Below, in pieces: positions 8,728-17,166 of a DNA stretch of 50,253 nucleotides. The stretch is from Fibrobacteria bacterium (GTDB lineage: Bacteria > Fibrobacterota > Fibrobacteria > UBA11236), in contig JAYTSD010000030.1 of assembly GCA_043745805.1 (NCBI GenBank), positions 1 through 50,253 of the forward strand. The letters are read 5' to 3'. How positions within the stretch are numbered: the first letter of the stretch is position 1; each line of letters opens with the position of its first letter. The position numbers and the translations under genes are program-made. The notes beneath the pieces were generated by a model that saw nothing but the letters and a program-made list of their open reading frames with translations, searched no databases and was not told the origin of the DNA.

Positions 8728-9768
8728 CTAGTTTTTAATTGACATTCCATCCGAAACTTGGAAGCCACCTGTTACAATTAAATTATCATCCGCTTTCAAA
8801 CCGGTTAACACCTGTACGGTATTGCCTTCGGAGCGACCTAAAGTAACCGGTACTTGTTTAGCTTTTCCTTCGACATATAACATCACAAAAGTTCCCTCTT
8901 GTAAACGCAGTACCGCTTGAGAAGGAACCATAATGGCATCTTTAAAGGTTTTACGTAAAATGCGTGCACGACCAACCATACCCGGTCTTAGTTTTAATCC
9001 CGTATTTGGAATTTCAATTCTAGCCGTAACGGTTCGGTTACGTGATTCGACTGCCTTATCCAAGCTTTTTAATTTTCCGTAAAAAACCTTTGTGGTGTCT
9101 TGAATCAAGTAAAATGCTGCCTTTTCACCCTCAGTAAAATCACTGCTTTCATTTTCGGGAATAGCTACTACCGCTTCAAGTTTATCGATGCTCGATAAAC
9201 GCACTGTTGGCATTCCAGGACCAATGGTTTGAAATTTCTCAATAGTTCGGCTCACCAAAATACCGGTGAAAGGAGCTTGGCAACGGCTGTCTTCATAAGT
9301 TCTTTGCGCTTGTAAATAAGCTACACGAGCGGCTTGATAACCCAGATTAGCATTATCCAAAGCGGTTTTGCCGACAAAGCCCTTGTCCACATTGGTTTTC
9401 ATTCTTTCGACTTCGTTTTTGGCGACATCGACTTGGGATTGCGCTTGCATGACTATAGCTTGAAAACGATTGCTTTCAATATCACACAATGCTTGACCTG
9501 CTTTAACGGCACGCCCAACTTCTAAAACATTGGTGACACGACCGCCCATGCCACTGGTGAGCACGGCATCATTCGCTCCACGTAAATCAGCGCTATAATT
9601 ACCCCAGTCTTCAAATGAAGAGACGGTAACTTTTGCGCTAACAATATGCACTCCTTGAGTGGATTCCAATCCAGCATCTGGTTTTTTTTCTTCATCCTTT
9701 TTTTTGCATCCCAAAAATGCAATAGATGCAGTCGTAATGGCTAAGAGAACTATGTGACGGGTATTCAT
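8728..9768 (-). CDS. RND periplasmic adaptor (membrane fusion) lipoprotein
   Basis: Lipobox FLGC; APFTG, LRPGM and VLTGL motifs; lies between the TolC and RND genes. Confidence 0.93.
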   Translation of the reverse strand: MNTRHIVLLAITTASIAFLGCKKKDEEKKPDAGLESTQGVHIVSAKVTVSSFEDWGNYSADLRGANDAVLTSGMGGRVTNVLEVGRAVKAGQALCDIESNRFQAIVMQAQSQVDVAKNEVERMKTNVDKGFVGKTALDNANLGYQAARVAYLQAQRTYEDSRCQAPFTGILVSRTIEKFQTIGPGMPTVRLSSIDKLEAVVAIPENESSDFTEGEKAAFYLIQDTTKVFYGKLKSLDKAVESRNRTVTARIEIPNTGLKLRPGMVGRARILRKTFKDAIMVPSQAVLRLQEGTFVMLYVEGKAKQVPVTLGRSEGNTVQVLTGLKADDNLIVTGGFQVSDGMSIKN

Positions 9769-9776
9769 AAAACCTC

Positions 9777-11123
9777 CTAAAATAAATCTTTGCCTAAGGC
9801 TAGTTTAAGCGCCGCAATAGAGCGAACGCGTTGGTATCGCGCAAATAAAATACCGAATTCGGCATCGCGCAAATTTGTTTCTGCTGTGAGTATGTCATTA
9901 ATTTGTCCTTTGCCTGCGGCAAAGTCTTCAGCTAATAATGCACGTGCATCGGTAGCGGCTTGCAAACCTTCTATAGCAGCACTTAGGGCCGAGTCCGAAG
10001 CATTTTGTTCACTCAAGTCACTGGCAATTTCAATACGTACCATGTTCAATGCTTTACTCTCGGTATATTCTAAGTTACGGGAGTCGGATAAGGTTTGTTT
10101 CGCTCGCGCGGAATTACCGAAACCATCAAATATTTGCCAATTCAAGCCTATTCCAAATTGCCAATCTAAATTGTCTTTGTTAAACAAATCTTTAGTCTTA
10201 TAAGCCAATACGCCATACTTGCCTTGAAAACCTAAGCTCGGCAAATACAACATATTTTGAAATTTGGACGCTTCTCTTAAAAAATCTTTTTGTAAATGCA
10301 AAGCTTTTAAATCTGCACGATTTTTTAAAGCTTCACTCACACCTTGTTCGGCATTAATATCTGTGATGGGTTGCATAGCAAAAGAGGCTGCAGTATCCAT
10401 TTCACTTACTGCATCAATAGGCTGTCCAATCAATCGATTAAAACTCATGCGAGCGGCTTGATAGTCTCTTTCTGCACGAATACGTTGTGGCTCAAGTGCT
10501 TTAGTAGAGGAAACTGCCAGTAAAACTAAGGACCTTTGACCTGCACCCATTTTGAAATTTTGTTGTAAATAATCCACCAATTTTTTTTGTCTTTGCAAAG
10601 AGGCTTCCAAGGTTTCCCAATGAGCCTTTGCTAAAACCACTCCAAAATAAGCGTCCAAAGTTTGTATTTGTAATTCTTGTAATGAACGCGTAAGCGTAGC
10701 CTCTTGAGACTTATCATATATGCCAGCCATCTTAATTGTTTGCCCTAAACGGCCAAAGGAGTAAAGGCTTTGATTAACTTGAGCGCCATAAGTAAAAGAA
10801 TTCATGGTCATATATTTTGAAGGGATTTTTCCATTTGAATCTGGCATACTTGGAATGAACGGCGGAAATGGTGACTGGCTGCGTCCTGCCGAACCATAAC
10901 CTGTTACATTTGGGAAAGCTCCCGACCAAGCTTCTTGCTTACGTGCTTCGGCATTAAGCTTTTTCTCTTGCGACATTTTCGCTTCTTCGCTGTTTGCTAA
11001 AGCTTGTTTCACGGCTTGTGACAAATTCAAAGTTTCCGCAGTAAGTAAAGTCGGTAATAAAACCGCTCCACCGAGGAATAATTTCGAAAGGATTACAGAA
11101 AAAGAAAATCTATGGTTTTGCAT
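9777..11123 (-). CDS. TolC-family outer membrane efflux protein
   Basis: Signal peptide, LNLSQAVKQAL, two OEP-like halves, GLNWQIFDGF; operon context. Confidence 0.92.
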   Translation of the reverse strand: MQNHRFSFSVILSKLFLGGAVLLPTLLTAETLNLSQAVKQALANSEEAKMSQEKKLNAEARKQEAWSGAFPNVTGYGSAGRSQSPFPPFIPSMPDSNGKIPSKYMTMNSFTYGAQVNQSLYSFGRLGQTIKMAGIYDKSQEATLTRSLQELQIQTLDAYFGVVLAKAHWETLEASLQRQKKLVDYLQQNFKMGAGQRSLVLLAVSSTKALEPQRIRAERDYQAARMSFNRLIGQPIDAVSEMDTAASFAMQPITDINAEQGVSEALKNRADLKALHLQKDFLREASKFQNMLYLPSLGFQGKYGVLAYKTKDLFNKDNLDWQFGIGLNWQIFDGFGNSARAKQTLSDSRNLEYTESKALNMVRIEIASDLSEQNASDSALSAAIEGLQAATDARALLAEDFAAGKGQINDILTAETNLRDAEFGILFARYQRVRSIAALKLALGKDLF

Positions 11124-11721
11124 GGTATTTGATCCTGGCTTTATCGGTCAATAGGCCTTGAAAAAGGACTTTAATAATGGTGTCAAAAACGAGTGCCGGC
11201 TGAAAGGGTAACTCGGATAATACATTTGGATTTAGTGTGCTTTGTACCACATTGGTATATATAATTAAAAAAAGTTCCGCATCAATATCTTCTCGAAAGA
11301 TTTTTTTCTTTATTCCCTCACGAATGAGATCACCAAAATAAGTTTTAATACAATGTTTGCGATGTTCTTCCACTTGTTGCCAAATTTGTGGCATGCTGCG
11401 TTTCAAATCGTAAACGAGCGCACTGCTAAATTTACTGTATTCCGAAACCAAATCCGCAATAATATTTTGAAAGCGTTCCAAAACATCTAGTTTGGGATCT
11501 TTGTAAATCAACAGCATACGCTCATCACATGCCAGTAAATAAGCGCTAGCCACGTCTTGTAATAACTCTTCTTTACTCGCAAAGTATTGATAAAGCGTTT
11601 TTTTGCTCATCCCTAATTGGGTGGCGACCTGTTCCATGGTTACTTGACTAAAGCCAAATTGGAAAAACAAAGACCGAGCCGTCTCTAATATGCGTTGTTT
11701 ATTTTCTAGCTCAGGTGTCAT
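11110..11721 (-). CDS. TetR/AcrR family transcriptional regulator
   Basis: RILETARSLF..GF..VTMEQVATQLGMSKKTLYQYFASKEELL HTH. Confidence 0.95.
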   Translation of the reverse strand: MTPELENKQRILETARSLFFQFGFSQVTMEQVATQLGMSKKTLYQYFASKEELLQDVASAYLLACDERMLLIYKDPKLDVLERFQNIIADLVSEYSKFSSALVYDLKRSMPQIWQQVEEHRKHCIKTYFGDLIREGIKKKIFREDIDAELFLIIYTNVVQSTLNPNVLSELPFQPALVFDTIIKVLFQGLLTDKARIKYHAKP

Positions 11722-11740
11722 TAGATTTCACTATTCCCAT

Positions 11741-11872
11741 GGAAACTTAAATAGTTTATCTAGTTTCCGACATATTGTCAAGGTATTAACCTTTTTATTC
11801 ATTTTTTGACCCTAATTTTCAGAATTTATTAAAATTTATGAAACAGAAACTTATTTGGTTTCTAAAGTTTCC
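11741..11872. promoter_or_regulatory. Two putative TetR operator palindromes GAAACT-N14-AGTTTC
   Basis: Copies at 11742-11767 and 11846-11871 with identical half-sites and spacing, upstream of tetR. Confidence 0.65.
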
Positions 11873-11956
11873 CCATACTTTGGCCATAATTTCCCCATTG
11901 CATATCCCAAGAAAACATCCTGTTTCGGGCCATACAAGATTTTGCTGGACAAGCGC

Positions 11957-11995
11957 TTCAATTAATCGTATATTCACGATATAAGATTAATTGAA
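11957..11995. promoter_or_regulatory. Putative ArsR operator (overlapping inverted repeats)
   Basis: Perfect 11-bp IR TTCAATTAATC (11957-11967) / GATTAATTGAA (11985-11995), plus ATCGT-N6-ACGAT (11965-11980), just upstream of arsR. Confidence 0.6.
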
Positions 11996-12012
11996 AAACA
12001 GGCAGTAAATTT

Positions 12013-12348
12013 ATGGCGATAAATAAAAAAAACGATTTTACCGAAGCGGATTTAGTCATGGCCGAATTTGCAAAGGCTCTTTCACATCCCGCACGTATAG
12101 CCATTGTAAGAATTTTGGCCGAAAAAAATACTTGCATTTGCGGAGACTTGGTAGAAGCTTTGCCCTTGGCCCAAAGCACCGTAAGCCAACATTTAAAGGC
12201 ATTAAAAGAGGCTGGTTTAATTCAAGGGGAAATCGATGGGCCGCGCTCATGTTACTGCTTAGACTGGAAAAATTTGCAAAAACTCTGGTCACGCATGCAA
12301 AAGCTTTTTTCACATTTAGATAAAGATCATCAACGTTCATGTTGTTAA
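12013..12348 (+). CDS. arsR: ArsR/SmtB metalloregulator
   Basis: [35 protein letters not shown]-terminal CC; first gene of the ars cluster. Confidence 0.92.
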
Positions 12349-12360
12349 TAAGGAGAAATT

Positions 12361-12492
12361 ATGTCTGTAATCTTGGAAAAATTTAAATCTCTTTGGATTA
12401 GAAAATCTTCAACCTGCTGTTGCACTTCTGATTGTAGTTGTACTAACTGTTGTAAATCAAATTATTGCGATGTGCCATGTGGCTGTAAATAA
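12361..12492 (+). CDS. Small cysteine-rich metallothionein-like peptide, 43 aa (MSVILEKFKSLWIRKSSTCCCTSDCSCTNCCKSNYCDVPCGCK)
   Basis: Translated by hand (below the ORF-track cutoff); AAGGAG RBS at 12350-12355; fills the arsR-aquaporin gap; 10 Cys in the last 25 residues. Confidence 0.75.
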   Translation: MSVILEKFKSLWIRKSSTCCCTSDCSCTNCCKSNYCDVPCGCK

Positions 12493-13156
12493 TTCCTTAA
12501 AAATCTTTATAAGCGAAGCCATTGGCACCGCTTTATTGTTGGCAGGTATTGTCGGTTCCGGTATTATGGGTGATACCCTATCTAACGGTAATGCGGGAAT
12601 TGCTTTGCTAGCAAATTCCTTAGCTACCGGCGCTTTGCTGGTTGTGCTCATTTTACTTTTTGAATCGATATCGGGCGCGCATTTTAATCCGCTCGTTTCC
12701 GCCATGGAAGTTTTTATGGGACAAAAATCTAGGAAACAATTTTGGGTTTACTTATCGGGACAAACGCTCGGTGCTTTTGCAGGGGTTGCCGCAGCGAATA
12801 TTATGTTTGCTAAACCACTATTTTTTGCATCACAACATATTCGCGCCGGTTGGCCGCAATGGTTCAGTGAATGTATCGCCACCTTTGGATTATTCGGCGT
12901 CCTCATGGGATGCAGTCGACGCAAACCACAAGCCATTCCTTATGGGGTGGGAGCTTATATTCTCTCTGCCTATTGGTTTACCTCTTCGACTTCATTTGCG
13001 AACCCCATAGTTACTTTGGCTCGCACCGTCACAGATACCTTTACCGGCATTCGTCCTCAAGATGCACCTTGTTTTATTGTCTCACAAATCATAGGCGCAA
13101 CCTTAGCCATCTTGATTTTTAATTGGTTAATTCCCAAAAAACCAACCGTACCCTAA
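12479..13156 (+). CDS. MIP/aquaporin family channel, AqpS-like (arsenite conduit)
   Basis: GSGIMG, ISGAHFNPLV, AYWFTSSTSFANPIVTLAR, DTFTGIRP; ars context; start is GTG 12479 or ATG 12470. Confidence 0.9.
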   Translation: MAVNNSLKIFISEAIGTALLLAGIVGSGIMGDTLSNGNAGIALLANSLATGALLVVLILLFESISGAHFNPLVSAMEVFMGQKSRKQFWVYLSGQTLGAFAGVAAANIMFAKPLFFASQHIRAGWPQWFSECIATFGLFGVLMGCSRRKPQAIPYGVGAYILSAYWFTSSTSFANPIVTLARTVTDTFTGIRPQDAPCFIVSQIIGATLAILIFNWLIPKKPTVP

Positions 13157-13186
13157 AAGTTACCTTCCATTTTAAAGGATTTATTT

Positions 13187-13573
13187 ATGAAAAAATTACT
13201 TTTCGTTTGTATTGAGAATTCTAATCGCAGTCAAATGGCCGAAGCCTTTGCAAAAATTCATGGTGCCGGCCTTGTGGAAAGCTTTAGTTCGGGTTCTAAG
13301 CCCTCAGGCATTGTTAATCCTAAAGCCATAGCGTCTATGGCTGAACTGAGTTATGACTTAAGCAAGCATGGATCGAAATCTCTTACTGAAATTCCCGATG
13401 TAGAATATGATGCCGTGGTGACTATGGGTTGCGGTGATGCTTGCCCTTTTGTAAAAGCGAAACGCCGTAACGATTGGCAAATCCCCGATCCAAAACATAT
13501 GGAACCCGAGCAGTTTCGCGAAATCAGAAATTTAATTGAAAACAAAGTGAAAGTTTTACTAACAGAAATTTAA
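13187..13573 (+). CDS. arsC: Arsenate reductase, LMW-PTP fold
   Basis: P-loop CIENSNRSQMAE, TMGCGDACP, WQIPDP. Confidence 0.9.
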   Translation: MKKLLFVCIENSNRSQMAEAFAKIHGAGLVESFSSGSKPSGIVNPKAIASMAELSYDLSKHGSKSLTEIPDVEYDAVVTMGCGDACPFVKAKRRNDWQIPDPKHMEPEQFREIRNLIENKVKVLLTEI

Positions 13574-13585
13574 CTTAAAGCGCGA

Positions 13586-14971
13586 TTAACGCGTAATAGT
13601 AAATGATCCATTCGATAAACCACTAATATATTTACCGTCCTTGGTTGTTAGCCTTACCATACAATTACTCGAAATCTGCAATGTAGAATCACTAGGCGAA
13701 AGCACGCTAGGCAAAGTCCAAGAATAATTATTTTCGACTCCAGTCATAGATACGGCGGTGTCAACTAATGCCCAAGTGCTTCCTCCATTGATAGAAAGAT
13801 CGATTCGTACCGAAGTGGCTATATCATACCTCCATCGGATGCTGGATATACTATTGGTAAATAAAGTATCACCAAGCCGAGGACTTATAATATTAATTGT
13901 GCTTACCTGAGGATTTATTACCGCTAATTTTATGGTATCGCTACTACTTAAAATCCCATCTGATACGGTTAATTGGAAAATATAATTACCCTCAGCAGAA
14001 AAGTTTACGCGCGTGTTTAAATTTTCTGGGGTATGAATGATTGCAAAATTTGGCCCGCTAATTTGTGACCATTGTTGTGTAATATTATGTGGCAAAGGAA
14101 GAGTGTCATCGCTTACGAAACCAACTAACATAAAGGTGGAATCCGATTTGTTTACGATTTTATCTATGCCTGCATTTACCTTAGGAGCTTGATTAACACC
14201 GGGTTTTACAACGATTGTGGTTTCAATAGGTGCTCCAGTAGTATCCGTAAGTGAATACGATTTATTGACTTGAGTATCTAAGTATTGTGACAATTTGTAA
14301 ATCTCACCCGTAGGTGATATCACGCGCGCGATATATTTTCCCGTAGGTAATCCATACATAGTAATGGTGTTTCCACTACCTTGTGCCTGATATGGGGTGC
14401 CTTGTATGTAGACATGAATGTTACCTGCTGGAATTTTACTTCGGTCAATAAGTAGTATCACCGATTTTAATGCCTTGGCTTGGATTTTATATTTTCCAAT
14501 TGGATTCCCAATGGAATCTTCAAATTGATTACTATTTTTATTATAGCGTATATGAAAAATTACATTGCCGGAATTTGCATCGCTCGCTAAAACAGCATTA
14601 AAGCGAATAAGGGAATCACCTGCAATGGAAAAAGCTGACTTTTTATTGAGAGTTATTTTTTGTGTTAAGGCCTGTATAGCGGGATTTATATCTGAAGCTG
14701 AAAAATAAACTTTGGCGCTATTAATGGTTATTTGTTTAGCGAGAGGAATTGAATTATTAACTGGATTTAAATTTTCAGCATAGAGACTTACGCTACCCGA
14801 CAAGCGAATATTTAATCCACTTTCATCATGGAAAGTAAAAGCCAATTGAGGATTGTCCACTCCGGAGCTTCCTCCGTCTGCAAGTGGATTTTTGGAGCAA
14901 TTAATAAAAATACCAATGGAAAGTATTACTAGCAGGAATATTAGGCTACATGCCTTTTTCCCCGTAAGCAT
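13586..14971 (-). CDS. Putative lipoprotein with PKD/Ig-like domains
   Basis: Hydrophobic signal ending IFINC; NQAPKVNAG.D..WSQISGP..GNYIFQLTVSDG (PKD-like); IISP..IRW..IDLSINGGSTW (Ig-like). Confidence 0.7.
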   Translation of the reverse strand: MLTGKKACSLIFLLVILSIGIFINCSKNPLADGGSSGVDNPQLAFTFHDESGLNIRLSGSVSLYAENLNPVNNSIPLAKQITINSAKVYFSASDINPAIQALTQKITLNKKSAFSIAGDSLIRFNAVLASDANSGNVIFHIRYNKNSNQFEDSIGNPIGKYKIQAKALKSVILLIDRSKIPAGNIHVYIQGTPYQAQGSGNTITMYGLPTGKYIARVISPTGEIYKLSQYLDTQVNKSYSLTDTTGAPIETTIVVKPGVNQAPKVNAGIDKIVNKSDSTFMLVGFVSDDTLPLPHNITQQWSQISGPNFAIIHTPENLNTRVNFSAEGNYIFQLTVSDGILSSSDTIKLAVINPQVSTINIISPRLGDTLFTNSISSIRWRYDIATSVRIDLSINGGSTWALVDTAVSMTGVENNYSWTLPSVLSPSDSTLQISSNCMVRLTTKDGKYISGLSNGSFTITR

Positions 14972-14972
14972 T

Positions 14973-15815
14973 TTAGTGAGCCTTTGAATTGGGAAATAGC
15001 TGCATATTTAAAGTATAGAGACGATCTTCTTTTTCATCTTTATCAATAATTTCTCGCAACTCTTCTTGGAAAGAACGGATTCGGTCTTTAATGGTTTGAA
15101 ACCCTTTTTCTGAAACAGAAAACATTAAAGCATTGTATTGACGAGAATTTGCGGGCACTTTTTCAAAAACCTCTTGCGACATGTCAATTAGTTCCAAAAT
15201 ATGTTGCTTAGCAGCCATGGCTTGCACATCTTTTTCCGTGGAAATATGCTTATTCGTTACCTTATAACCCGCAGCAGTTTTTTTTATTAAATCCAACTCT
15301 AATAATAATTCAATAGATTCTTCCACCTGAGCCGTGGTAAGGGCGGGAAATATTTTTCCAGCTATCATTTGCGGATGGCGTTGCTTTTCATCAATACAAA
15401 AATAATTTCGCACAGCAGAATAATACCATTTAGAATAAAATTTGTACTGGGTTGCATTCACTATTTGTGCTTTTGAACTACGAAATTTACTTAATGACGC
15501 AAAAAAATGATTCTTTTCCACCATGCCTTTGGCTTGATTAAATTGCACGAGCAATTCAAAATAGGAATACTCTCTTTCATTCAGCTGCATGGCCTTGCCA
15601 AACTTAATTCGCAAATTAGCACTTAAATTTCTTCGGCCTTTCACAATTGCTGGCCAGAGACTAGAACAGGAAACCGGTAAACCGATTTCGCGCGCAAAAT
15701 TTCTTTGCGAAAAATTAATATTAATGGATTTTTGATATTCAAAATAATCACGCATATAATCGCGATAATTTAAATACTGCATGACCTGCGGAGCATTTTT
15801 AAATTTGGCTTCCAT
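14973..15815 (-). CDS. TIGR02147 family protein (HTH-like N-terminus + DUF4423)
   Basis: YLNYRDYMRDYFE..FSQRNFAR, GRRNLS, YFELLVQFNQAK, YSKWYYSAVR, LYTLNMQLFP. Confidence 0.88.
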   Translation of the reverse strand: MEAKFKNAPQVMQYLNYRDYMRDYFEYQKSININFSQRNFAREIGLPVSCSSLWPAIVKGRRNLSANLRIKFGKAMQLNEREYSYFELLVQFNQAKGMVEKNHFFASLSKFRSSKAQIVNATQYKFYSKWYYSAVRNYFCIDEKQRHPQMIAGKIFPALTTAQVEESIELLLELDLIKKTAAGYKVTNKHISTEKDVQAMAAKQHILELIDMSQEVFEKVPANSRQYNALMFSVSEKGFQTIKDRIRSFQEELREIIDKDEKEDRLYTLNMQLFPNSKAH

Positions 15816-16080
15816 GTTTCAAGTATAACACCTAAAGTAAAATTGAAAAGGCACATCCTTTGAAAAGTGAGGACATTTTGGACTATATATTTTTGAGGTT
15901 TTTTTATTTCATCTTCATTTTTTATGATTTTTCTTTGATTTACTTAGTAAAATGATGATTTTTTTCGTTTAACCTAGTTTTTAATGAGGACAAAATATCC
16001 TCGTATTTGTTGTCCCTTGCGCTTTGTTCTGCGCTCACTTGCGAGTATTCTTAAATCAGTAACACTAACTCGGAGGAATT

Positions 16081-17166
16081 ATGCGCAAACCCTTTCTATT
16101 CAACTCTTCATTAATTGGATTAGCCTTGGCGGGCTCTATACTAATTGGATGTCAAAATATTTTAGACAATACTAATGCAAATCAAAATCAAACTAACGCC
16201 ACAACACCTGATAATATCGCCTTACGATTGGTAGAAAAGACCACACCTTCTTGCGTGGAAATGAAAGCTAAACTCACTTTAAATCCCAGCGATACCAGCA
16301 CCCTCAAAACCAAATATTTGTCCCAGTGTATTGAAAACCATACGAGCGACAGTACCCATGTAAAGGATTCTTCAAGCATTACCCGGCCTGATGCCAAAAC
16401 TCAATGCGATTGGATCAAATTTACTATTGATGGTGGTAAAGTAGATTTCAAAAATCAATTTGCTTATTACTGCAAAGATGAATGTTCCAAATGGGAGAAA
16501 GACGGAACAGGAAAAAATGTACGTTATTGTTTAATTAAAGAAATAAAGCTTTCCGACTCCTTACCTAAACCTATTCCTCATGATACCACCATTGTCCCTC
16601 CAAAACCAGATTCCACTAATTTACCCAGTTGCGATTCGCTGCGCATGATGTTGAAACATGCAGGAAATGACTCCACTTATAAAAAAATGTTACTTGCGCA
16701 AATGTCGTTAAAACATTGTATTATCGACACAGTTATTGTTATTCCTCCTCCAGTACCCCATTATACTTGCGATACCTTGAGAATACTTTTGAAAAACGCT
16801 GGAACTAATTCCGAGCTCATTGCTAAACTCAAAGCACAAATGCTTGCCCAACATTGTACCATGGACACGGTTATTGTTACTCCTCCTCCAGTACCGCATT
16901 ATACTTGCGATACCTTGAGAATACTTTTGAAAAATGCTGGAACTAATTCCGAGCTCATTGCTAAACTCAAAGCACAAATGGTCGCCCAACATTGCGTCAT
17001 GGACACAGTTATTGTTACTCCTCCCCCAGCACCACATTATACTTGTGATTCATTAAGAGTGATGCTAAAAAATGCAGGAACAAATACTGAGCTTGTCAAT
17101 AAAATCAAATTGCAAATGAATACACAGCATTGTGTAACGGATACACTTATTGCACCCCAAAAATAA
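16081..17166 (+). CDS. Uncharacterised lipoprotein with four 46-aa Cys-pair repeats
   Basis: GGAGGA RBS, lipobox ILIGC, tandem repeats, downstream terminator. Confidence 0.8.
   Translation: MRKPFLFNSSLIGLALAGSILIGCQNILDNTNANQNQTNATTPDNIALRLVEKTTPSCVEMKAKLTLNPSDTSTLKTKYLSQCIENHTSDSTHVKDSSSITRPDAKTQCDWIKFTIDGGKVDFKNQFAYYCKDECSKWEKDGTGKNVRYCLIKEIKLSDSLPKPIPHDTTIVPPKPDSTNLPSCDSLRMMLKHAGNDSTYKKMLLAQMSLKHCIIDTVIVIPPPVPHYTCDTLRILLKNAGTNSELIAKLKAQMLAQHCTMDTVIVTPPPVPHYTCDTLRILLKNAGTNSELIAKLKAQMVAQHCVMDTVIVTPPPAPHYTCDSLRVMLKNAGTNTELVNKIKLQMNTQHCVTDTLIAPQK
16630..17163 (+). repeat. Intragenic 138-bp tandem repeat, about 4 copies (last one partial)
   Basis: Unit-initial Cys codons at 16630, 16768, 16906 and 17044; copies 2 and 3 nearly identical in DNA. 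Confidence 0.95.

Follow-up and report, generated by a model that had tools for sequence, protein, structure and literature searches.

A Cysteine-Rich Small Open Reading Frame in an Arsenic Operon

The window analyzed here is a stretch of 50,253 nucleotides (positions 1 to 50,253, forward strand, of contig JAYTSD010000030.1, GenBank assembly GCA_043745805.1) from a Fibrobacteria bacterium of the phylum Fibrobacterota, and our subject within it is a small open reading frame (ORF) for a 43-residue, cysteine-rich peptide that lies between the regulator and the channel gene of an arsenic resistance (ars) operon. Four genes on the + strand make up the locus: arsR, which encodes a regulator of 111 residues (12013..12348; HTH_5, 1.3e-14; NF033788, 7.7e-21); the small ORF (12361..12492); a gene for a MIP-family channel that resembles the AqpS-type arsenite channels (12470..13156; PF00230, 9.7e-20); and arsC, for an arsenate reductase of the low-molecular-weight phosphatase type (13187..13573; PF01451, 1.9e-18; TIGR02689, 5.7e-25, below the curated cut-off of that model). 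These matches agree with a first-pass annotation, made from the letters of the sequence, that had named arsR, an aquaporin, and ArsC as the surroundings of the small ORF; NCBIfam gives the regulator only a generic metalloregulator subfamily name. The window's ArsR carries a CxC motif in the DNA-binding region, a CYC motif and a C-terminal CC pair (it ends in RSCC), and ArsR proteins of the same bacterial family generally end in CC. Ahead of arsR stands a sigma-70-like promoter, TGGACA-17-TATATT (11946..11974, +; 10 of 12 consensus matches, consensus match only), and a motif scan places an operator-like palindrome, ATCGTATATTCACGATAT, over its -10 element (11965..11982; core ATCGT-N6-ACGAT), which is a putative ArsR site. 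Because a promoter-like site precedes arsR and neither a terminator-like site (zero in a scan of 11700-13800) nor an Rfam match was found in the ars region of the window, the four genes look like one operon.

The small ORF had been reported as missing from the program-made ORF track, and it reads from ATG to TAA as proposed, with MSVILEKFKSLWIRKSSTCCCTSDCSCTNCCKSNYCDVPCGCK as its product. Its ATG follows the arsR stop codon (12346-12348) after 12 nucleotides, within which lies a Shine-Dalgarno site, AAGGAG (12350..12355, +), 1 nucleotide after that stop and 5 nucleotides 5' of the ATG. The ten cysteines that had been counted in the last 25 residues all fall within residues 19-42 (CCC at 19-21, CSC at 25-27, CC at 30-31, C36, and CGC at 40-42), and there are zero histidines; residues 1-18, which begin MSVILEKFKSLW, are basic and aromatic (I4, L5, F8, L11, and W12, against K7, K9, R14, and K15). 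A lipoprotein or signal peptide was rejected by reading because no hydrophobic core precedes the first cysteine. The MIP ORF starts in a different frame, with an ATG at 12470 that gives a 23-nucleotide overlap with the small ORF, and direct reading of the sequence found no Shine-Dalgarno-like site ahead of that ATG or of an in-frame GTG at 12479. With its start codon embedded in the small ORF and no Shine-Dalgarno site to itself, the channel gene probably relies for its translation on ribosomes that have completed the small ORF.

To gauge how unusual such a frame is, cysteines were counted per 25-residue stretch over all stop-to-stop frames of at least 25 residues in the whole 3.95-Mb genome (40% GC). 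The small ORF ranks first in cysteine density among 84,343 such frames: ten cysteines in 25 residues occur in this frame only, nine in three frames, and eight in seven, which confirms that it is more than a chance feature. The window stems from an assembled sediment metagenome, and four DNA runs from one sediment study, of which two may be its source, carry the small ORF without any difference and hence show no polymorphism.

Relatives of the Peptide in the Bacterial Family

The genes around the small ORF were used as anchors in related genomes. The channel was searched in 41 related genomes and then in all 32 genomes of the bacterial family (ortholog at E ≤ 1e-30 in 19), arsR was searched in the family genomes (found in 29 of the 32), and the ars loci were read by script and by eye. 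We refer to the window's genome as G000, to its genus as g1, and to the sister genus as g4; the family counts include G021 (genus g3), a genome flagged as unpublished, which figures only among the genomes searched and those without the peptide. A small ORF of the same build occurs in nine of the 32 genomes (g1, 1/1; g4, 8/12; the other four genera, 0/19): it follows a Shine-Dalgarno site and encodes a basic aromatic N-terminal segment and then a cysteine-rich tail that contains one CC pair or more. The first-pass annotation had proposed a search of homologous loci for a conserved cysteine pattern, and its outcome is divided: look-alike ORFs exist in eight further genomes, all beyond the window's own, and they are confined to the sister genus.

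All nine peptide ORFs adjoin arsR on the arsR strand, and eight of them stand directly before an exporter gene. Where that gene encodes a MIP channel, the peptide has 43 residues and 10 cysteines in G000, 53 and 13 in G018 (starting MKFLNRLFGRK), 31 and 7 in G007 (MKFLNRLL), 57 and 14, including a run of eight, in G012 (MSLWKRIFGGK), and 31 and 4, as two CC pairs, in G003 (MKSLFSWLKS). Where it encodes ACR3, the figures are 33 and 6 in G014 (MNTIKSWFRNL), 63 and 10 in G047 (MNFLKKLFRF), and 74 and 6 in G020 (MNFWKKLF). The ninth peptide, of 27 residues with 6 cysteines (G016; MKPIQSLWNRL), stands alone before an arsR-MIP pair. The ACR3 assignments of G014 (TIGR00832, 1.3e-131) and G020 (4.6e-127) are above the equivalog cut-off, and that of G047 is read from the translation only. 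The tie to the aquaporin that had been drawn from the window thus holds for the five genomes in which MIP is the next gene and gives way to a tie with ACR3 in the other three.

In the N-termini, positions 3/4 and 7/8 are occupied by bulky hydrophobic or aromatic residues, lysine or arginine lies between and after them, and the window peptide, whose N-terminus is four residues longer, has such hydrophobic or aromatic residues at positions 4, 5, 8, 11, and 12. This pattern looks like one face of an α-helix, a judgment of amphipathicity made by reading the sequences; the basic N-terminus remarked on in the window is in any case a conserved basic and aromatic segment across the family. The window ORF shares every feature by which we define the family (a Shine-Dalgarno site 5-6 nucleotides from the ATG, 27-74 residues, 10-15 basic and aromatic N-terminal residues with no cysteine in the first eight, a tail with a CC pair, and a place on the arsR strand beside arsR and an As(III) exporter gene). 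A hidden Markov model (HMM) of eight members scores it at 3.3e-11, with the window ORF itself in the training set, and the sole member outside that set, G020, at 0.036 over its N-terminal 18 residues only.

Beyond these loci the family is essentially unannotated. No Pfam match was found at E ≤ 1 for the window peptide or at E ≤ 5 for four other members, and no NCBIfam match at E ≤ 1 for the window peptide or at E ≤ 0.01 in a further search; there was no sequence match in the PDB, and the ESM Atlas held no useful neighbor (best score, 0.75). An alignment of six members returned nothing at E ≤ 10 from a word-indexed collection of 5.8 billion, a profile of eight members run against 1.84 billion representatives recovered only a member of its own, P0001, and a search with P0001 added one close relative, P0004. 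In an exact-sequence look-up against a collection of 15 billion proteins, seven of the nine peptides were absent, including that of the window; the two present, G047 (as a "hypothetical protein") and G020, are the two longest.

HMM scans of the genomes themselves gave 14 extra places in the 39 genomes of the order (E 0.02-1) and eight in the 296 genomes of the phylum (E 0.03-0.08), all outside an ars context; the phylum scan, which scored only 22 candidates per genome, missed three known members and is therefore insensitive. A counting filter based on the shared build finds four places in 7.9 Mb (both strands of G000), one of them the window ORF, and in the ars loci of the bacterial family (0.24 Mb) it picks out seven of the nine; because it was written after the members had been seen, it only illustrates specificity. 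Among AqpS-type loci of other lineages it has one match, L075, which lies 2.2 kb away from the channel. A full-text literature search, whose coverage excludes subscription journals, found no description of such a peptide in ars operons, and in a 2018 review of ars genes (PMC6205960) the terms "metallothionein", "cysteine-rich", "small protein", and "peptide" do not appear.

Translation Signals and Conservation of the Protein

Several observations bear on whether the small ORF is translated and whether its product is under selection. A purine-rich, Shine-Dalgarno-like site lies 5-6 nucleotides before the ATG in all nine members, as AAGGAG in six and otherwise as CAGGAG, GGGGGG, and AAGAAG. The peptide ORF lies tight against the gene that follows: G007 and G012 share stop and start codons in an ATGA, the window has its 23-nucleotide overlap, and only 6 nucleotides intervene in G003 and 10 in G018; in G020 the distance to ACR3 is 56 nucleotides. 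The overlaps and short gaps agree with the translational coupling to the exporter gene that had been proposed for the window. Because the junctions vary between genomes (overlaps of 23 and 4 nucleotides, gaps of 6, 10, and 56, and one gene that stands alone), a programmed frameshift that would fuse the small ORF to the channel was rejected.

When the eight g4 members are compared pair by pair over the first eight codons after the ATG, with 224 comparisons per codon position, the third position shows 150 differences, the first 119, and the second 98. Codons 2-8 of G047 and G020 differ by four synonymous changes and one amino-acid change, and codons 2-7 of G018 and G007 encode identical residues with two changed codons. 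The database relative P0004 is 76% identical to the G047 peptide and keeps all ten cysteines and the first 18 residues; its differences lie at three non-cysteine positions of the cysteine-rich part and in a spacer rich in alanine, lysine, and proline, which contains a 9-residue indel. At 33% GC, the window ORF spells seven of its ten cysteines as TGT, whereas the g4 ORFs, at 51-68% GC, spell 55 of 66 as TGC, and the cysteine richness, being kept from 33% to 68% GC, is therefore independent of base composition. The closest channel relative in a metagenome scan has 61% identity, which leaves no near neighbor for an estimate of nonsynonymous to synonymous substitution rates (dN/dS). Judged by these codon patterns, the peptide is conserved at the amino-acid level, and we infer that the small ORF is translated.

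A Candidate ArsR Operator and a Stand-Alone Peptide Gene

The palindrome ahead of arsR links the peptide gene to the regulator. Written as ATCGTATATNNNCGATAT and allowing at most one mismatch, it has a single occurrence in the whole G000 genome; the exact 18-nucleotide motif, which can also be written ATCGTATAT-N3-CGATAT, immediately precedes arsR in most of the bacterial family's ars loci and is absent from all 160 loci examined in other lineages. Sites were located at 11965-11982 in the window and at 1016-1033 and 1469-1486 in locus L129. The motif count is one in each of G014, G010, G020, and G047, and in the G016 genome the motif occurs exactly twice, 32 nucleotides before arsR and 77 nucleotides before the stand-alone peptide gene. 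That gene is not part of the operon but lies 325 nucleotides before arsR; after it come a hairpin (-27.9 kcal/mol, z = -4.25) and a run of U, a terminator that ends ~290 nucleotides before arsR. The stand-alone gene thus has a presumed ArsR operator separate from that of arsR. Operon position together with this separate copy supports placing the peptide gene in the ArsR regulon, as had been suggested from the window, and the 18-nucleotide motif is a candidate ArsR operator for this clade. As a further observation, the 36-nucleotide stretch around the motif (11963-11998) also aligns, at four mismatches, to additional short contigs from those sediment runs.

Genomic Surroundings

The ORFs from 8728 to 17166 encode, in order, an efflux adaptor, TolC, TetR, ArsR, the MIP channel, ArsC, a lipoprotein, a member of TIGR02147, and a lipoprotein with repeats. 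The ars operon is immediately preceded, on the opposite strand and in divergent orientation, by a cluster for TetR, a TolC-like outer-membrane factor, and a membrane-fusion protein of an efflux system (8728-11721, -); the name of the efflux adaptor (8728-9768) comes from sequence reading only. Downstream, the ORF at 14973-15815 (-) belongs to the TIGR02147 (Fsuc_second) family (4e-71), which we take to be a Fibrobacter paralogous family and hence a lineage marker that points to Fibrobacterota. A lipoprotein-like ORF of 361 residues at 16081-17166 (+), with no NCBIfam match, contains four tandem repeats of ~46 residues with two cysteines each (...PPPVPHYTCD.LR..LKNAGTN.EL..K.K.QM..QHC..DT.I...).

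Proposed Role and Alternative Explanations

We favor, with modest confidence, the view that the peptide is an ArsR-controlled, membrane-proximal mini-protein that binds trivalent arsenic, As(III), is made with the exporter, and uses its thiols to buffer As(III) locally and possibly to donate it. Three thiolates coordinate each As(III), and the As(III) sites of ArsD and ArsR combine a vicinal cysteine pair with a third cysteine; because these proteins use vicinal pairs and all nine peptides have at least one CC, we read the tail as a binder of As(III). The cysteine-rich tail (CCC, CC, CxC) would then probably bind the metalloid through three thiolates each, up to about three As(III) per peptide, and the first ~15 residues may form a basic aromatic amphipathic helix that probably lays this small cytoplasmic protein on the inner face of the membrane. 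When As(III) appears, ArsR would release the operon, the small ORF would be translated from its strong Shine-Dalgarno site, and the ribosomes that finish it would restart on the overlapping channel gene, which has none, so that peptide and channel would be made together. The peptide would hold As(III), including that made from arsenate by ArsC, next to the exporter, buffering it locally so that thiols of the cytosol are spared and possibly donating it to channel or pump. The exporters themselves differ in mode: according to the 2018 review, As(III) made by ArsC leaves through AqpS-type channels down its gradient, and ACR3 pumps As(III) out (PMC6205960).

A number of points weigh against this proposal. 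As(III) binding and membrane association are both read from composition alone, and the AlphaFold2 model of the peptide has low confidence (predicted local distance difference test score, pLDDT, 53) and shows helix just at residues 4-11. Nor is it obvious how efflux would gain from an As(III) sink in the cytoplasm next to a channel that conducts in both directions. The tails vary in length and cysteine content (peptides of 27-74 residues with 4-14 cysteines), and no fixed metal site can be defined from them; that of G003 has two CC pairs only, and G020 has 6 cysteines in 74 residues. The peptide was not found in four of the 12 g4 genomes, namely G046, where the contig ends 66 nucleotides before arsR, G022, which is 84% complete and in which neither arsR nor the channel was found, G024, which has an ArsM-like gene after arsR, and G010; nor was it found in any of the 19 genomes of the other four genera. 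Among AqpS-type loci, neither the 80 taken from named genomes in other phyla nor the 80 taken from metagenomes have a comparable ORF ahead of the channel. Because no such ORF was found in these g4 genomes, the other four genera, and the 160 loci of other lineages, AqpS-type channels evidently work without the peptide. Finally, the members were recognized by eye, and the counting filter was defined after they had been seen.

Direct hand-off of As(III) to the exporter is speculative. A specific hand-off is at odds with the two unrelated exporter folds that are served, the variable tail, and the AqpS and ACR3 genes elsewhere, most of which have no peptide.

Among the competing explanations, the small ORF could be a regulatory upstream ORF that loads ribosomes onto the exporter gene or tunes its translation, for example by stalling at cysteine codons, with an inert peptide as its product. 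Such an element would explain why the channel starts inside the small ORF without a Shine-Dalgarno site, the ATGA overlaps of G007 and G012, and the attenuator-like strong hairpin and U run after the G016 ORF. However, the G016 ORF is monocistronic, with its own operator and a terminator that ends ~290 nucleotides before arsR, so there is nothing there to couple to; a gap of 56 nucleotides precedes ACR3 in G020; the N-terminal motif and the cysteines are kept at the amino-acid level across very different GC contents; and the window operon has neither a terminator-like site nor an Rfam match. We consider an inert leader improbable, and translational coupling is in any case compatible with a working product. 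A classical attenuator leader was rejected for the window, where the 11700-13800 scan found zero terminator-like sites and the small ORF overlaps the next gene; in G016 a terminator does follow the ORF, but arsR starts ~290 nucleotides later behind its own operator.

The peptide might instead be a general thiol-rich buffer or metallothionein for copper, cadmium, zinc, mercury, or redox stress, riding in an ArsR/SmtB-type operon in the manner of smtA under SmtB. Cyanobacteria have metallothionein genes under ArsR/SmtB regulators, the cysteine-rich composition is metallothionein-like, and the generic NCBIfam name of the regulator would suit such a role; but arsenic-specific partners (ArsC, an AqpS-type MIP channel, or ACR3 above the equivalog cut-off) accompany the ORF in all nine loci, no metal ATPase or cation diffusion facilitator gene is found in these loci, and the window peptide has no histidine and matches no Pfam metallothionein family. 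A role in soft-metal or redox homeostasis at large accordingly carries a low probability in our estimate.

Somewhat lower still do we place the idea that the peptide is an As(III)-sensing regulator of the exporter, which would bind the channel or pump and alter its gating or stability when its cysteines are loaded. It would be a trans-acting counterpart of the plant ACR3 sensor domain, a cysteine-rich, As(III)-binding N-terminal domain that controls the transporter (PMC13674352). Co-production with the exporter suits this idea, and gating would be useful because AqpS-type channels are bidirectional and sensitize cells to outside arsenite (PMC6205960). Against it, the same type of peptide accompanies two unrelated folds, MIP and ACR3, stands alone in G016, and has tails too variable for a specific interface.

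A chance ORF without function is very improbable: it would fit the shortness of the ORF, the lack of database relatives, and the oversight by gene callers, but not the top rank in cysteine density in its genome, the nine loci with Shine-Dalgarno sites, the substitution pattern by codon position, or the operator link in G016. Least probable of all, and also held less likely in the first-pass annotation, is a ribosomally synthesized and post-translationally modified peptide (RiPP) precursor, a leader plus cysteine-rich core processed by a modifying enzyme: the N-terminal segment and the cysteine-, serine-, and threonine-rich C-terminal part recall SCIFF-type and thiopeptide precursors, but no NCBIfam or Pfam precursor model matches, no maturase (radical SAM, cyclodehydratase, or the like) is found among the genes within ~3.5 kb on either side, the length and pattern of the core are not conserved, and the context is ars in all nine genomes.

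With an As(III)-binding mini-protein as the preferred reading, the gene-level claims of the first-pass annotation are supported and its biochemical claims are plausible. To our knowledge, ArsD, which serves the ArsA ATPase, is the only arsenite chaperone known. How As(III) reaches ACR3 and AqpS-type channels without damage to cytosolic thiols is an open question in the field, for which the micro-protein is a concrete candidate, and one easily tested, as a 43-residue peptide can be synthesized. A bolder extension, which we think rather unlikely, is that these peptides are the first arsenite chaperones for ATP-independent exporters, a membrane-tethered thiolate relay that picks up As(III) on the inner side of the membrane and feeds it to MIP and ACR3, which are structurally unrelated exits, with a second cysteine-rich protein (described below) as an independent invention; a passive channel would thereby gain an effective direction. 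More broadly, the locus illustrates that gene callers overlook functional small genes inside well-studied resistance operons, and biosensing or bioremediation could profit from a short As(III)-binding tag that is encoded genetically and anchored in the membrane.

Comparison with Known Systems

Among the closest known systems is ArsD (PF06953), in which vicinal cysteine pairs bind As(III) and with which the new peptides share at least one CC pair. At the level of motif, the window peptide shows the ArsD-like combination of a vicinal pair and a third cysteine in its CCC, its CC, and its two CxC. ArsD is, however, a protein of ~120 residues with a thioredoxin-like fold that serves the ArsA ATPase, whereas the new peptides have 27-74 residues and no confident fold, and their genes stand before those of the ATP-independent MIP and ACR3. 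In the 2018 review, ArsD is a soluble ars-operon protein whose As(III) is passed to the efflux system (PMC6205960). The ArsD profile does not match the window peptide or four other members, and a genuine ArsD in G010 is recovered with that library at 1e-48. This is the only ArsD among the 32 family genomes, and G010 is the one well-assembled g4 genome that has ars genes without the peptide, a single case that gives a weak hint. Its locus (L125, G010:C3, oriented 1501-2625) reads arsR-arsC-arsD, and a MIP-arsC pair lies elsewhere without arsR.

SmtA/BmtA and MymT are, like the new peptides, small cysteine-rich metal binders, and SmtA is under a repressor of the ArsR/SmtB family. The new peptides differ from SmtA/BmtA in the lack of a Pfam match, in the absence of histidine (window peptide), in a membrane-type N-terminus, in a context of arsenic and not of zinc, cadmium, or copper, and in a variable cysteine pattern. 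Membership in the SmtA/BmtA family (Metallothio_Pro) was rejected, as no profile match was found and the window peptide has none of the histidines that serve as ligands there. The short, basic, aromatic N-termini of the nine peptides are reminiscent of the amphipathic membrane-targeting helices of MinD and FtsA, with the difference that here the helix would be N-terminal; the window's genome offered no MinD above cut-off for a comparison of helices.

In Marchantia, a cysteine-rich N-terminal segment on the arsenite exporter MpACR3 binds As(III), as we propose for the new peptide, but that segment is fused to a eukaryotic transporter and controls its trafficking from the Golgi to the plasma membrane, whereas the new peptide is a separate bacterial gene product (PMC13674352). 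The closest remark found in the literature concerns Exiguobacterium, where a small, uncharacterized, cysteine-rich hypothetical protein beside acr3 has been suggested to be relevant to arsenic resistance; it has been placed in the superfamily of DnaJ/Hsp40 cysteine-rich domains and comes from Firmicutes, and we liken it to the new family by its description only (PMC9671657).

Similar cysteine motifs recur in ars loci of related genomes. Two of the 15 g3 genomes encode a second cysteine-rich protein with no Pfam or NCBIfam match (L131, 1847-2116, 89 residues, in G009; L259, in G017:C216). The 89-residue protein occupies the same slot between arsR and MIP, behind a Shine-Dalgarno site and with a stop that overlaps the MIP start, and has four CC pairs and a C-terminal CC; it lacks the basic N-terminal segment, has a helical-looking middle, and is apparently unrelated to the new family. 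The arsR ORF of G020 (L141, 533-1015) has ~50 extra residues and ends in ...CGLDGCC, and in G047 (L140, oriented 1910-2130) a separate ORF between arsR and the peptide gene, preceded by a Shine-Dalgarno site, ends in ...CGVDGCC. An ArsM-like methyltransferase gene adjoins arsR in L014, L115, L116, L121, and L137 (after arsR in most, before it in L121), and the N-termini of these proteins carry motifs of the CC-x3-CC type (...CCAPSCCGG..., ...CCEPGCC...) that echo the CC pairs of the peptides. Set beside these systems, the cysteine-rich, arsR-linked micro-proteins are a new, lineage-restricted family of a known general kind, that of small cysteine-rich metal(loid)-binding proteins, and what appears to make them unusual is the combination of an N-terminal segment of membrane-helix type, probable ArsR control, and putative translational coupling to arsenite exporters.

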